Source: Promethearchaeati archaeon (GTDB taxonomy: Archaea; Asgardarchaeota; Heimdallarchaeia; JABLTI01). From it: 47,593 nt of DNA. Shown here piece after piece: positions 22,461 through 41,154 of the stretch; position 1 is the first letter of the stretch, and the number at the start of each line of letters is the position of its first letter. Where the stretch lies: contig JABLTI010000009.1 in NCBI GenBank assembly GCA_013166835.1, positions 1 to 47,593 on the forward strand, given 5' to 3'. The position numbers and the translations under genes were made by a program. Below the pieces are notes generated by a model. It had not been told where the DNA came from. It saw only the letters and a program-made list of their open reading frames with translations, and did no database searches.

Positions 22461-23643
22461 ATGGTAAAAATTACGAATTTTTATGGAACCTCGTGGTGCT
22501 CTGATTGTAAACGATCAAAAACATTTCTTGGTGGACACCGAATTCCGTATAATTGGATAGACATAGATGAGAATGAAGAAGCAGCATTAATCGTTGAAAA
22601 AATTAATGACGGAAAACGACGTGTGCCAACTATTGAATTCGATGATGGTACATTTCTTGTGGTTCCACAAATGCTGAATTAGCACAAAAACTAAGCTTAC
22701 AAACAAAACCTAAACACAAATATCATGATATATTGATCATAGGCGGAGGTCCTGCAGGGTTAACATGTGCTCTCTATACTTCTCGAGAAGGTTATGATAC
22801 TGCTCTTGTAGAAAAAAGTGCCTTGGGAGGTCAGGTTGGAGTAACAGAGAGACTAGATAATTATCCGGGATTTCCTGAAGGAATATCCGGGAATGATTTA
22901 GCAGATAGAATAGCACGGCAAGTAGAAAAATTTGGCGTGGAATTCATTAAAGCAACAGAAATTGCTAGTATATCTGATATGGGTCATTGCTTAGTAGCAA
23001 AAACAACAACTGGAGAAGAAATAGATGCGAAAGCAATGGTTATTGCTACTGGTAGTGAATATAAAATGTTAGAAGTTCCCGGAGAGAGAAAATTACTTGG
23101 ATATAAAATCCACTTTTGCAGTACTTGTGATGGTCCTTTTTACAAAGGAAAAGAAGTAATGGTTATTGGTGGAGGAAATTCAGCTTTCGAGGAATCAGTC
23201 TTTCTAGCACGATTTGCATCAAAGGTCACCATTGTAGGAAGATCTGATGAATGGAAAGCATCAGCAGTTCTAAAACAGAAAATATCAGAAATACCAAACA
23301 TAAAATTAGTAAAAACAAAGTTGTTAAAGAATTCATAGTCGGTCCAAAGAAGACATTGAAGGGAGTAAAATTCTATGATAAAGACACCGAGAAAGATATT
23401 GTATTGCATCCCGATGGTGTTTTCATTTTCATTGGATTGAAACCAAATGTCGATATTGTCAAAGATTTAGTAGCTTGTGATGAGGGTGGATTCATAATAA
23501 CAAAAACCAACATGATGACAAGCACTCCTGGACTATTTGCTGCTGGTGATTGCCGATCAGGATCTACAAAACAAGCTGCAGCTGCAGCAGGTGAAGGTGC
23601 AGCAGTAGCATTAATGGTAAGAGATTATCTGAAAAAGAAATAA
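22461..23643 (+). pseudogene. trxB: NrdH-like glutaredoxin-thioredoxin reductase fusion split by two 1-nt frameshifts (about 22667 and 23311-23315)
   Basis: WCSDC/VPTI glutaredoxin domain; IIGGGPAG, CSTCDG, GGGNSA, GLFAAGD; adding one base at each site gives a continuous protein (..VVPxNAELAQKL.., ..KLVKNKVVKEF..). Confidence 0.85.
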
Positions 23644-36653: not shown

Positions 36654-36893
36654 ATGACAGATATGCCAACTGCGGATAAAACAATTGATTGTCGCGACAT
36701 GCAATGTCCTATGCCAATCCTAAAAGCTAAGAAAGAGATACAAAAAATCGAAGTAGGCCAAACATTAGAAGTTCTTTCAAATGATCCTGGTTCTAAAGAA
36801 GATTTTCCACGGTGGGCTAAGCGAACTGGCAACGAATTTCTTGGCGTCTTTGACGACGGTGACACTCATTACTTTATAAAAAGAAAGGTATAA
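36654..36893 (+). CDS. tusA: TusA-family sulfurtransferase
   Basis: DCRDMQCPMPILK, VLSNDPGS, W..RTG; AGGTGA SD. Confidence 0.93.
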   Translation: MTDMPTADKTIDCRDMQCPMPILKAKKEIQKIEVGQTLEVLSNDPGSKEDFPRWAKRTGNEFLGVFDDGDTHYFIKRKV

Positions 36894-36966
36894 CTTATTC
36901 TCTTTTATTTTTTCTTTTTGAATTTTTTTTATTATATTTCGATAGTTATCTGATATACCATAAAAA

Positions 36967-36982
36967 CGGTAAACTTTAAAAG
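36967..36982 (+). promoter_or_regulatory. Putative BRE/TATA promoter for the 5S precursor
   Basis: CGGTAAAC-TTTAAAAG about 25 nt upstream of where the pairing leader (about 37001) begins. Confidence 0.55.
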
Positions 36983-37025
36983 CAAAAGATGAAACGAAAG
37001 AATACGCAGAAACTCATCACCGGAA

Positions 37026-37145
37026 GTTAAGCCTTCAAACGTAGTGGTAATTACTGATCTGAGCGATCGTTCGGGAACATCATTAAGCTGCGTTGCGACG
37101 CGGTCAAAGCTGGAGGGTAACACCCGGACTCGTCCGATCCCGGAA
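37026..37145 (+). rRNA. rrf: 5S rRNA, circularly permuted gene (3' part 37026-37093, linker 37094-37097, 5' part 37098-37145) inside a BHB-like processing stem (37009-37157)
   Basis: 5S 3' motifs GTTAAGCC..TACTG..GGGAA come before 5S 5' motifs CGGTCAAAGC..AACACCCGG..CCGATCCCGGAA; helices I (ACGCGGT/GCTGCGT), II (TGGAGG/CCTTCA), III (CCGG/CCGG with AA bulge) and V (TAGTGGT/ATCATTA) all pair; length 120 nt. Confidence 0.9.
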
Positions 37146-37355
37146 ATGGTGGGTTTCGTTGCTTATTTATCCCATAAATCGTCATTTCTCTTTCTCCTTT
37201 GTAATAACGATTACCACTATCTCATTTACTCCACGAAACCCCTCATTACAAGCAGTTTTTCTAATTTCTTCCTTTTCCACCTGTCTCCAAGCAATCTCAC
37301 CCACTTTTCTTGAGTTGTTTACTGATTAAGGAAATGGATAATTTTATTCTAATCA

Positions 37356-37971
37356 CTATTTTGTCAAAGTGACCTTCATTCCAGCAATCACATTGCAATG
37401 GAATTATGCTTTTTTGAACAATTTTTTAGGATTATTACCAAATTTTTTTATGGCATTCCTGTCAAAAATGTAATCTATATTTAAATTACTAAATGCAAAA
37501 TCTGTGAAATATGGTCTCCGCTCACCTGTGAAAAATTTGAAAGTTCCTTCAGTAATAAAGTGTTTATGTGTTGGATCAGAGTAAGCATTTTTATGATTCC
37601 AATAGGTAATCCTGATTTTCAATTGCCCACCAAGTTTTAGTAATATATAGCATTCACCAACAACTGCCATCATATCGTCTAAGTGTTCTAAAATATCATT
37701 CATTATTATTAAATCAAATGAACCATCCTCGAAACCTCTCTAATGATAAGAGTTTAAATCTTGTATGATGTCAACATTATCCAAAGCAACAATATCAATG
37801 CCTATTGCACCTGGAGTTTTTGCTGTTCCACAACCTACATCTAATATTTTTTATTTGGATCTGGTTCTATGAAAGGTTTTTGAATTGCTTTTGTTTTTAA
37901 ACCAAAAATCTTTCTGAGTTTTCTCGTAATTCTAAAGCTGAGTTTATGCTTGAATTGAACTTTTCAACCAT
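37356..37971 (-). pseudogene. Class I SAM-dependent methyltransferase pseudogene (glycan-locus type)
   Basis: LDVGCG..K..GAIGID..DIIQDLN, FDLIIMNDILEHL, AYSDPTH; broken by frameshifts and in-frame stops (SYH*RG; KKA*FHCNV). Confidence 0.8.
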
Positions 37972-37972
37972 T

Positions 37973-38920
37973 CTATTTTCTCCTATATTTTCCCAGTATC
38001 TTTTTCAAAGATGAACGTAACGTCATTTTAGCCCATATATATTCAATCCATTCTACATTAGTTTCCTTGACCCAAGATTTTGCTTCTTCGTCATTAAAAG
38101 CATCAATTTTTCTAAGAGCTTCGATTGCTCCAAGAACGATTTTTAAAAGATAGTCTTTTCCTGGATTGCAATACTTCACAATGCCTTTCCACTGCATATC
38201 ATAAATCCGTCTTTCCCATTTTACATCTCTTACTCTTTTAACTTGAGGAATAATTTGCAAATCTGGTTCTTTTTCTCCTTTCTTTGCTTGCATTTGATGG
38301 TAATGAAAAGTGTCTAAAAATTTCATATAATTATCCATGCCAACTAATTCTGCAATAATTATATCCTCATTCCGTTGCAAATAATCATCTTCAACTACAG
38401 CAATTGCTTCTTGCATTCTTTTAGTGTTACCGAATTGACTACCACTATAAGCTCTTTCTCTTTCAGTTTGCTTAATATCATCCCATAATACTAAAGAAAT
38501 CTTTTTTCTAGCACATTCAAACCAGGATTTCTCTTCTCTATGCCCCCACATTGCATCAAACCAACTTTCAGGTAGAAAAACGTCACTGTGTAGATATATC
38601 ATATATTCTGTTTCACTAGCCTCGATTAATTTCTTTATACTAAAACCTTGACTTTTGAAATCATGTTGGTCAAAAACTACTACTCTTGGAAATTTTTTAA
38701 GAATTTCAAGACTATTGTCTGTAGAACCACCGTCACCTATTAGTAAACGTTTTATCGGTATCCTCTTATAAAAATTAAGTAAACTCTTTTCAAAATATTG
38801 ATTTGAATTAAGCAGAGGAATGATAACATCAACAGCACGTTCTTTATCTGTTTCATATCTATCTACAAAATCATTATCAAATAAAATTTCAAACAATTCA
38901 TCATAACTCACATTCTCCAT
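37973..38920 (-). CDS. Glycosyltransferase family 2 protein
   Basis: VDVIIPLLN, IGDGGSTDNS, YLHSDV, RNED; GGAGTG SD. Confidence 0.88.
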   Translation of the reverse strand: MENVSYDELFEILFDNDFVDRYETDKERAVDVIIPLLNSNQYFEKSLLNFYKRIPIKRLLIGDGGSTDNSLEILKKFPRVVVFDQHDFKSQGFSIKKLIEASETEYMIYLHSDVFLPESWFDAMWGHREEKSWFECARKKISLVLWDDIKQTERERAYSGSQFGNTKRMQEAIAVVEDDYLQRNEDIIIAELVGMDNYMKFLDTFHYHQMQAKKGEKEPDLQIIPQVKRVRDVKWERRIYDMQWKGIVKYCNPGKDYLLKIVLGAIEALRKIDAFNDEEAKSWVKETNVEWIEYIWAKMTLRSSLKKILGKYRRK

Positions 38921-39250
38921 TTTTAATCACTCCTAATTTGTGTAATTCTTCTTCGCTTATTTCTCTTTCGCTTTCTTTTATCACCAATTAATCAACATAT
39001 ACAATAAATCATAACACAAAAAAATAAAGAACATACAATATAAACCAAACATTCCCACCACATCATTTTTGCTCTTTCTCCTTTTTTTCAATTGGAAAAT
39101 CAAAATCATGTAGGGGAGCCGCAGTAATTTTCGGTTACTTGAAAAAGTTTGAAAGAAACTATCAATTCTATGTGTATCCACATGAAAAACGGTTTCTGGG
39201 ACGATTTGCCCTAGAAATGGTGGGTTTCGTACCTCTCGATTCCTTTTTTA

Positions 39251-39607
39251 TTAGAATTCATCTTCCACATCGAAAGCTAATTTGCCAGCCTCTTTTGTGA
39301 GTAAACTAAAATCAATTTTGTGTTTCCCAGGTTCAATATTACCTTCTATTCTAAAAGTAAAAGTATCTCCTTTGGTTAACTTGAAGGGATTTTCTTTATT
39401 GACATCCACTAATTTAACAACTACATCATCATTAATCAAGACTTTTATTTTGTCAACATCAAAATCTTGCTCATCTATCTTTATTGGATCTAAACCAATA
39501 ATTGTTGCTGGATAGATATTGTTCTGCAATTGAAAGGTAATTTCATTTGCATCTTGCTTCAAACTACCATTTAGATAGAGTTTTCTTAACATTACTTTAG
39601 GTATCAT
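39251..39607 (-). CDS. Conserved hypothetical beta-sandwich protein
   Basis: IPKVMLRKLYLNGSLK...GKHKI; AGGAG SD; function not assignable. Confidence 0.7.
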   Translation of the reverse strand: MIPKVMLRKLYLNGSLKQDANEITFQLQNNIYPATIIGLDPIKIDEQDFDVDKIKVLINDDVVVKLVDVNKENPFKLTKGDTFTFRIEGNIEPGKHKIDFSLLTKEAGKLAFDVEDEF

Positions 39608-39666
39608 AGAACTATACTCCTGCTATTTTATACAAATATCTTAGTGGTTTTTTAAATTTTGTTAAT

Positions 39667-40959
39667 TTATGGAAAGGCTGATTTTAGAAATTCGAAAATG
39701 TGTTTCTTAGATATTTTTGATTCACCTCTTACTCGAGGATTAAACACATAACCTACTCTTCCAACCTTTGTTTCTTTCTTGCGTGAGTGTTTCAATAATT
39801 CAAACATCACTTTGTAACCCTTTGGTCGGAAACCTTTCGGATGTTTTTCTATCACCATTTTGGAATATTCAGTTTCTCCACCGAAGAATCCACTCATAAC
39901 ATCTCCACAACTCGCAGAGCGATGAATCCAATGTGAAAATTTTCCTATAACGCTTGCACCCCAAGATATTACCCTCCTTGAGAAAGGCCAATCGGGGATT
40001 TCATCTCTTTCACCAATGACGAAATTAAATCCTTCTCGGAGTCTAATAGCAATCTCTCCTACTTTCTCTGGTGGATGTTGAAAATCACAATCCATAACAA
40101 TGAAATATTTTGTTTCAGTCATCTTGATGGCATCAAGTACACTGATAGTTAATCCATGAATCTCTTCAGTTTCCCTATCTAGTAAAAGGAAATCAGGATT
40201 CGTTTCACTAAATTCGCGGACTTGTTCTCTTGTACCATCTTTTGATCCATCATCAGCAACAATGAGCTTAATACCTTTGTAATTTTCATTCATGTGTTCC
40301 ATTAATGGTCCAATGTTTTCATTTTCATTGAAAGTAGGTGTGATTAATGTAATATCGCTAAAATCCATATCTGGAGGAACTATTATTGGTTCTTCGGGGA
40401 CTTTCTCTATCACATCAAATGTCCAAACTTCATTCCACATGTAATTCCACAGGACTGTAATAACAAATGCAAAGGCACTTGCAGCAAGAGTAGCATTATC
40501 TATATTCGGAACAACTTTATGGAATTGTTTTGTAAAGGTAGTTGTTAAAAGATATTTAAGAACCGCGCCAGAAGCTCCTACAATTGCATATTTGATGAAT
40601 TGAGTTCCAACCCTTTCGTCTCTCGAACCACTAAAAGTCCATAACTTGTTCAAAATATAATTAGAAGTCGTAGCTGCTGCAATACCCATAGCAATAGCAA
40701 TTAAACCTTTAATTGTAAATTTAAAAATCCAGTAAGTGTATTCTGTATCAAGAATAGTTGTTATACTTCCAATAACAAATTCTGTTAGAGCTAAAGCTCC
40801 TAAATTAATCCCTAAACCAACTAAAGAAACAACGGTAAATTTGAGAAGTCGTTGCTTAAAACCAGCACCTAATCGTTTGAAGCGATCCTTGACACTGGTT
40901 TTTAGGGGTTTTTCTTTAATTTCCTTTTCGTTTTTTAGCTCTATTTGCTCATCCGGCAT
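39667..40959 (-). CDS. GtrA-like membrane domain fused N-terminally to a polyprenol-phosphate-mannose synthase-like GT2 domain
   Basis: KFTVVSLVGLGIN..NYILNKLWTF (GtrA); ITPTFNE, ADDGSKDGT, MDCDFQHPPE, DVMSGFF, RVRGESK (DPM1-like); likely ATG 40959 with AGGAG SD. Confidence 0.88.
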   Translation of the reverse strand: MPDEQIELKNEKEIKEKPLKTSVKDRFKRLGAGFKQRLLKFTVVSLVGLGINLGALALTEFVIGSITTILDTEYTYWIFKFTIKGLIAIAMGIAAATTSNYILNKLWTFSGSRDERVGTQFIKYAIVGASGAVLKYLLTTTFTKQFHKVVPNIDNATLAASAFAFVITVLWNYMWNEVWTFDVIEKVPEEPIIVPPDMDFSDITLITPTFNENENIGPLMEHMNENYKGIKLIVADDGSKDGTREQVREFSETNPDFLLLDRETEEIHGLTISVLDAIKMTETKYFIVMDCDFQHPPEKVGEIAIRLREGFNFVIGERDEIPDWPFSRRVISWGASVIGKFSHWIHRSASCGDVMSGFFGGETEYSKMVIEKHPKGFRPKGYKVMFELLKHSRKKETKVGRVGYVFNPRVRGESKISKKHIFEFLKSAFP

Positions 40960-41154
40960 GTTGTGGTTTCTCCTAACGTAGTCAAAATCCATCAAGCTAT
41001 TAGGTAATAAGGTATGACAAAATTCATTATTAAAACTATTCAATAAAATCAAAACATGCACATCAAGATTGGTTCATCCTTTCTCCCCCCCTCCAAAAAT
41101 TTCGAGGGTATAAATTATTAAAATAAAAGAACTAATCTTGATATGATGAATTAA

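Follow-up and report, generated by a model that had tools for sequence, protein, structure and literature searches.

A lineage-specific 2-kb islet at the 3' processing arm of a permuted 5S rRNA gene in a Heimdall-group archaeon

Results and discussion

An insertion with base-resolved borders

The window analysed here, positions 1 to 47,593 of contig JABLTI010000009.1, belongs to a Heimdall-group archaeon and carries, directly behind a 5S rRNA gene with swapped halves, a short islet with an intact family-2 glycosyltransferase (GT2) gene and the remains of a methyltransferase gene. Proteins that cluster with the CysRS of this genome at 90% identity or more carry the name Candidatus Heimdallarchaeota. 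The islet is a true, lineage-specific insertion, the borders of which are resolved to the base. It lies between two identical 17-bp direct repeats, one of which is part of the 3' processing arm of the 5S gene, and is absent from the same place in the relatives. It is a small orphan element without a recombinase of its own, flanked by repeats that look like attachment (att) sites, at the flank of an RNA gene.

37160..39213, no strand: islet of 2054 bp, repeats excluded; missing in relatives
37143..37159, + strand: proximal repeat copy (final base of the CCGG helix, a G; AAA bulge; complete 3' stem strand of 11 nt; GT)
39214..39230, + strand: distal repeat copy, exact match to the 17-mer

The 17-mer, GAAATGGTGGGTTTCGT, is perfect at 17 of 17 positions in the two copies, both on the + strand and 2071 bp apart from start to start, as a preliminary description of this DNA had claimed. 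Local alignment of the two repeat contexts returns exactly these 17 bases, with no similarity beyond them at either end; the 60-nt flanks of the copies resemble each other no more than shuffled sequences do. At up to two mismatches the window holds two matches, which are the copies themselves (0.00 expected, 100 shuffles), and the same two are the only ones in the whole genome of origin (G000), a metagenome bin of 3.56 Mb in 260 contigs, 84.75% complete and with 6.79% estimated contamination; the 17-mer is not a dispersed repeat. Across 83 genomes of the class, exact copies are confined to the 5S arms of two congeners, G002 and G007, and to the two sites in G000, and copies with one or two mismatches are as frequent as those of a reversed control.

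Empty sites were found in the three closest congeners, G002, G007 and G003. Each has a single 17-mer (with one base different in G003), followed by the homolog of the window from 39231 onwards, and the sequence right after the 17-mer reads GCCT(T/C)TTGAT...T6-7...CAGAATTCGTCTTC in all three. The 600 nt to the left of the arm share 94-95% of their bases with the window as far as 37159, and the 600 nt to its right about 89.5% with the window from 39231; neither flank aligns with the islet. In 8 of the 11 family relatives, the slot is free of the islet, and the stop of the neighbour gene, for the same 118-aa protein, comes 29-110 nt past the arm; in G011, the locus is ended by the end of the contig. 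Because the islet-free genomes that keep this neighbour are the three closest relatives together with five more distant ones, parsimony points to a gain in the lineage of G000. Searches with the islet DNA found no homologs in 60 relatives, and the islet is single-copy in G000; two short matches, one on contig C208 of the same genome and one in G014, were discarded, as both fall in unrelated coding sequence.

The junctions are also seen in assemblies from public sequencing runs, the contigs of which were compared with the window over 36800-39700. One contig of run X1, which may be the source of the assembly, covers the whole stretch. In run X5, from a different study (2019), a contig of 321 nt (36888-37208) spans the proximal junction, and another of 2395 nt (37240-39633) extends from the islet interior across the distal junction into the flank; in run X8, from a third study, the proximal junction is bridged (36902-37224). 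Exactly this GT2 protein is encoded by 11 recorded contigs. Neither empty-site nor circular joints were found among the contigs of runs X1, X5, X6 and X8, contigs being a form of data from which rare forms drop out. Runs X9-X20, which have only small shares of matching words, form no part of this comparison, and none of the RNA runs contains the stretch. Two X8 contigs (36902-37359 and 39066-39226), between which 37382-39030 is uncovered, raised the idea of the same ends with another cargo; it was rejected, as a gap in cover proves nothing and is not crossed by any contig.

The permuted 5S gene and its processing stem

37009..37019, + strand: 5' strand of the outer processing stem, GAAACTCATCA; pairs with 37147-37157 in the minimum-energy fold
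37020..37145, + strand: body of the permuted 5S rRNA, with swapped halves; helices I and II 100% paired, with compensatory changes
36970..36982, + strand: conserved A/T-rich box TAAACTTTAAAAG; nearly invariant block AAACTTTAAAA in 12 family sequences (alignment A1)

The 5S gene in front of the islet is more remarkable than the islet itself. Rfam reports no 5S gene in the window or elsewhere in G000, scores the unrearranged 5S DNA at only 16.4 bits, and finds 5S genes above its cut-off in 4 of the 83 class genomes and in none of the 12 family genomes. Failure to predict 5S genes in complete Heimdallarchaeum genomes is mentioned in the available portion of Wu et al. (2022, PMC8813620). The literature that was accessible, in part as excerpts, yielded no account of permuted 5S genes from Asgard archaea and none of 5S genes that serve as attachment sites, and the accessible part of PMC11529989 contains nothing relevant on repeats, att sites or rRNA.

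Conservation of the 181 bp that surround the proximal copy extends to all 10 genus genomes and to the one sister-genus genome. The body of the gene starts with a CCGG head (37020-37023) and continues with the 3' half (37026-37093), a TGCG loop that caps helix I (37094-37097), and the 5' half (37095-37145), which ends in CCGGAA. Put back into canonical order, the sequence aligns to canonical 5S rRNAs with scores of 7.5 and 6.5, vs -1.5 and -5.0 in gene order, and the rearranged score exceeds those of 200 shuffles.

Outside of the body, the leader strand GAAACTCATCA is complemented by the trailer strand TGGTGGGTTTC (37147-37157), and 9 of the 11 pairs of this outer stem have changed on both sides among 15 sequences. 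Perfect stems of 9-13 bp, with quite different sequence, occupy the same place in G083, G087, G048, G077 and G042. Over the whole structure, which was drawn from the window sequence itself, 94.6% of alignment cells are paired; the share is 84% after shuffling and 35-47% with the partner shifted along. The CCGG head can pair with a CCGG tail (37140-37143) to form a central helix, which leaves AAA (37144-37146) as a 3-nt bulge. The 17-mer consists of G37143, the last base of that CCGG helix, the AAA bulge, the 3' stem strand at 37147-37157, and GT; alignment, covariation and fold all bear out the earlier claim that the repeat spans the 3' bulge and one strand of the outer processing stem. An AAG on the 5' side is a possible second bulge. 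By eye there is no inner helix between the strands, and the fold places 5S helix III there. Judging by sequence, cuts after AA on both sides would join CCGGAA to GUUAAG, which is the canonical loop-C sequence. The block AAACTTTAAAA is located about 27 nt upstream of the leader strand and, by its position, this A/T-rich box is likely to be an archaeal promoter element of the 5S gene.

Permuted 5S genes can be present in more than one copy. The two single-contig genomes of the class have two each, G016 at C1:2238519-2238617 and 2590559-2590657, and G026 at C1:2471162-2471260 and 2829783-2829881; leader and trailer stems differ between the copies, and the second copy is sub-threshold in Rfam (31 bits). 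One record of run X5 (record 5, window 37071-37146) represents a second, slightly different 5S locus, the trailer of which diverges after 37146, and indicates a co-occurring relative in that sample.

Cargo of the islet

37973..38920, - strand: intact GT2 gene, 315 aa (PF00535, E 4.6e-10), with its own ribosome-binding site
37356..37971, - strand: methyltransferase pseudogene, ATG at 37969-37971; three in-frame stops and one frame change

The G+C content of the islet, 0.29-0.33, is like that of its surroundings. The best matches of the GT2 in a large protein collection are unnamed proteins with 93% (P0001, from a 5.4-kb contig), 80% (P0002, from an 11.2-kb contig) and 75% identity, followed by proteins from Hodarchaeota (60%) and Heimdallarchaeota LC_2 (55%). 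None of the 60 relatives has a GT2 more than 30% identical to it, and among 400 genomes of the phylum there are only six relatives, at 44-50%, all from one other family. The family is widespread in bacteria: an alignment-based scan of GTDB contigs found 39 bacterial and Asgard loci with 33-49% identity, none of them near a 5S motif; a scan of the same contigs with the single protein gave no match; viral contigs contain one match at 33%. Since neither the islet DNA nor its GT2 has a close relative in the genus or the class, the islet is foreign, accessory DNA.

The methyltransferase pseudogene directly follows the GT2 stop. A tblastn search with P0072, a fused GT2-methyltransferase, traces a single frame from 37919 to 37359 with 58% identity over 187 aa, and the first 17 or so codons from the ATG lie in another frame, the change being near 37920-37930. 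The reading is interrupted by TAA at 37851-37853, TAG at 37740-37742 and TAA at 37404-37406. The preliminary description was right in placing a GT2 gene and a multiply broken methyltransferase between the copies; the damage comes to three stops and one frame change, and not to several frameshifts. Stop-codon recoding was considered for this gene and rejected, as TAA and TAG are both present, the stops align with K, W and N/Y of the homologs, and each is one base away from a sense codon.

Ends of the islet and the 5S transcript

37233..37249, - strand: inverted near-copy of the 17-mer (14/17), 73 nt from the proximal copy; the sole further match in the window at up to three mismatches
37170..37188, + strand: left arm of a weak inverted repeat (local alignment score 10), partner 39184-39201
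39184..39201, + strand: right arm of the weak inverted repeat, partner 37170-37188
37256..37260, + strand: first T5 run past the 5S gene in its present context, 97 nt beyond the proximal copy; follows the inverted near-copy
39244..39249, + strand: T6 tract, 13 nt after the distal copy; T6-T7 at the same place in G002, G007 and G003

Two features near the ends of the islet may be of mechanistic interest. One is the inverted near-copy, of a quality expected 0.08 times per window. The other is an imperfect inverted repeat of 19 nt, which starts 10 and 12 nt inside the islet ends and has a score that was reached by 1 of 300 shuffles of the outer 40 nt. The very ends of the islet are not inverted repeats, and terminal inverted repeats sought over 80, 150 and 250 nt were not above shuffles. 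These end features might resemble a structured attachment region; a hairpin on the donor side would explain the inverted near-copy equally well. In the centroid fold of a read-through transcript the near-copy competes with the processing stem, and the stem alone folds as expected. The idea that the near-copy and the distal repeat form a bulge-helix-bulge (BHB) motif was also tried, and no such motif was seen by eye.

The T6 tract behind the distal copy is probably the displaced original terminator of the 5S gene. The preliminary description had already likened it to one, and the T6-T7 that follow the single 17-mer in the three empty sites agree with this. It should be mentioned that the tract (39243-39249) has six Ts in the window and seven in the contigs of X1 and X5. 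In the present arrangement, the T5 run is a possible substitute terminator. The proximal copy leaves the processing stem of the 5S intact and, because the islet-bearing lineage turns up in several samples, the arm seems to be sufficient in cis for 5S.

How the islet may have arrived

We favor a single crossover of a circular foreign DNA at the 17-mer, at a probability of about three in four. In this scheme, a foreign circle of about 2.05 kb would have carried one copy of the 17-mer and undergone one Campbell-type crossover with the identical 17 bp in the 3' processing arm of the permuted 5S gene. Such a crossover would leave a copy at each junction, the proximal one keeping the 5S stem whole, and would displace the original trailer and T-tract by 2 kb. 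The GT2 would have been kept intact, presumably for use in surface glycans, as the partner methyltransferase decayed. If the event was site-specific, the recombinase, whatever its kind, would have been supplied in trans or lost by decay, and the islet would be an att-flanked remnant devoid of a recombinase, comparable to a bacterial cis-mobilizable element (CIME). This site-specific version of the crossover is the one that we take, at odds somewhat short of even. It is favored by the features of the ends and by the kind of target, the 3' flank of a gene for a small structured RNA: such flanks are classical integrase targets, and integrative elements typically duplicate the 3' ends of tRNA genes.

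A number of results weigh against a dedicated integration system. Pfam searches with 39 open reading frames of the window, a piece of core chromosome with genes for thermosome, Nop5, fibrillarin, Hef and CysRS, found no recombinase, transposase, Cas1 or polymerase, and eight reading frames from the non-coding ends of the islet had no recombinase match at E up to 1. The 85% complete G000 has one tyrosine recombinase, on contig C61, which is XerA-like: the archaeal XerA model fits it best, at 117 bits, under the model cut-off of 220. The exact 17-mer occurs at 3 viral loci and at least 120 metagenome loci, and the viral loci and 80 of the metagenome ones have unrelated contexts, with no 5S, islet, attP-like copy or larger element among them; hence the larger element with a tyrosine integrase beside the 17-mer that the preliminary description would have led one to expect did not turn up among the loci examined. 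The 20-mers from both islet ends have 0 matches in viral contigs, and a parent element that brings its cognate integrase was found neither in the viral and metagenome scans nor in the 400 phylum genomes. A further case of a duplicated 5S arm did not turn up, each of the 11 family relatives having a single arm, and none of 13 other permuted-5S loci, a small sample, has an arm repeat of at least 14 nt within the 0.5-19 kb downstream. Both the inverted near-copy and the subterminal inverted repeat were found post hoc. The interior of the islet, moreover, shares 12 other exact matches with the rest of G000 (nine of 17 nt, two of 18 nt and one of 19 nt), and, because of these further identities in an A+T-rich genome, the 17-nt identity needs no dedicated att site. 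That the repeat stands at both junctions has a mechanistic meaning; an identity of 17 nt between a 2-kb DNA and G000 is to be expected by chance. Nothing found shows that a dedicated integration enzyme placed the islet.

The earlier proposal of an element using the 5S arm as its attB holds in part. The islet is inserted, the repeat stands at both junctions and the stem is kept, but no recombinase in the islet or the window, no attP-like copy and no reuse of the site was found. The companion claim, that the insertion is independent evidence for a functional flank, is weak, since the 17-mer is restored at either junction by every crossover within it, whether it has a function or not; the covariation of the stem is the real evidence.

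The host may itself have recombined a circular foreign DNA, by homologous or short-homology recombination at a chance identity of 17 nt, with the 5S arm a coincidental and tolerated target. This would fit with the 12 other matches of at least 17 nt, the lack of a recombinase nearby and the lack of reuse of the site in the relatives examined, and an intergenic spot behind a gene would let an insertion survive. Some archaea do recombine on very short homologies; on the other hand, the 2-kb circle would have to be non-replicating and 17 bp would have to suffice for recombination, which for Asgard archaea is hypothetical, and neither an inverted near-copy at 73 nt nor a subterminal inverted repeat is predicted. 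We consider this version doubtful but a serious contender. Still further along the site-specific line, the 17-mer could be a genuine attachment site for small cargo cassettes of Asgard archaea, a so far undescribed family, that home to the permuted-5S arm with the help of an enzyme encoded elsewhere, the subterminal inverted repeat and inverted core copy being the signals. We think this unlikely; if it were so, integration would regenerate the arm, and an essential RNA would still mature.

Other explanations dispense with the crossover. A transposase-like enzyme with a 17-nt stagger, such as a casposase-like integrase, would produce a direct repeat of target sequence exactly at both ends, as observed, and the weak subterminal inverted repeat could be its trace; casposons make duplications of 14-15 bp, next to tRNA or EF-2 genes. 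This is very unlikely, as no transposase, Cas1 or polymerase gene was found, true terminal inverted repeats are absent, and the islet is single-copy in G000 and missing from relatives; we know of no duplication of the transposon or casposon kind that is as long as 17 bp. Deletion between direct repeats is common, so the islet could in principle be ancestral and have been lost from relatives by precise deletion between the 17-mers. This would take several independent precise events, as all eight neighbour-keeping relatives are free of the islet; it would also leave the origin of the second 17-mer unexplained and sit badly with islet DNA and a GT2 that are without relatives in the genus or class, and we regard it as highly improbable. 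An assembly or binning artefact, that is, a chimeric join at a short repeat, might be suspected in a metagenome bin with 6.79% estimated contamination. In view of the X5 contigs across both junctions, the X8 contig across the proximal one, the contig over the entire stretch from X1, a run that may be the source, and the 11 contigs with the exact GT2 protein, its probability is negligible.

The slot behind the 5S gene and other genes of the window

39251..39607, - strand: original downstream neighbour, 118-aa protein with HMG-CoA_red_N domain (PF25653, E 8.5e-19); next to the 5S gene in 8/11 family relatives

The product of the original neighbour gene is a stand-alone protein that consists solely of the N-terminal domain of HMG-CoA reductase (PF25653). 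The next gene downstream, at 39667-41061, codes for a fusion of a GtrA domain with a GT2 similar to dolichyl-phosphate sugar synthase. The foreign GT2 of the islet has thus come to lie beside a resident gene for glycosylation. In two congeners, G009 (L225, 346-3190) and G006 (L226), a three-gene operon for a metal ABC transporter lies between the 5S gene and the GtrA-GT2 gene, where it replaces the gene for the 118-aa protein; there is no arm repeat in the slot of either genome. Accordingly, the slot behind the 5S gene is variable within the genus, without arm repeats. Elsewhere in the window, a pyridine-nucleotide-disulphide oxidoreductase (22733-23643) is split into two overlapping frames, 22733-23338 and 23251-23643, which may be due to a frameshift or a sequencing error.

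Significance

The islet is a clean, base-resolved case of recent gene gain in an archaeon of the Heimdall group, the closest archaea to eukaryotes. It also amounts to a natural experiment on a 5S gene: 17 nt of bulge and stem strand have stayed with the gene, the rest, including the old T-tract, now lies 2 kb further on, and several samples show that the lineage has persisted, which suggests that the arm is the part of the trailer that is required in cis. If the arm is a real attachment site, a 5S processing signal joins the short list of RNA-gene targets of integration.

Comparison with known systems

In the part of PMC5704250 that was available, CIMEs are foreign DNA located between attL/attR-like repeats without genes for integration or transfer. 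Like the CIMEs of the streptococcal families of integrative and conjugative elements and integrative and mobilizable elements, the islet keeps att-like direct repeats and is without genes for recombination or transfer. Unlike them, it has no known parent, cognate integrase or accretion partner, its repeat is only 17 bp long, its host is an Asgard archaeon, and its target is a 5S trailer, where theirs are the 3' ends of genes for proteins or tRNAs.

Mobile elements of Heimdallarchaeum (HeimV1 and aloposons) integrate at tRNA genes, according to the available portion of Wu et al. (2022, PMC8813620). As far as that portion describes them, they share with the islet the host group, a position beside a gene for a small structured RNA and foreign cargo; they differ in being 8-44 kb long, in having integrases or giant proteins, and in their tRNA gene targets, whereas the islet has 2 kb, no recombinase, and a 5S arm as its target.

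Casposons are Cas1-dependent transposons, which leave a long direct duplication of the target next to an RNA or translation gene. The islet is similar to them in its long direct repeat of target sequence beside an RNA gene, and dissimilar in that it has no cas1, no polB and no terminal inverted repeats, and is single-copy.

The target gene, in turn, compares to permuted RNA genes that are processed through BHB motifs, for example those of permuted tRNAs: its halves are swapped, and leader and trailer form a covarying helix beside 3-nt bulges. It departs from them in encoding 5S RNA and in that its clear parts are limited to the AAA bulge on the 3' side, the CCGG helix of 4 bp and the outer stem, a canonical inner helix not being evident. 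To go by the sequence, the leader-trailer helix and its bulges should allow the transcript to be cut and its ends to be joined.

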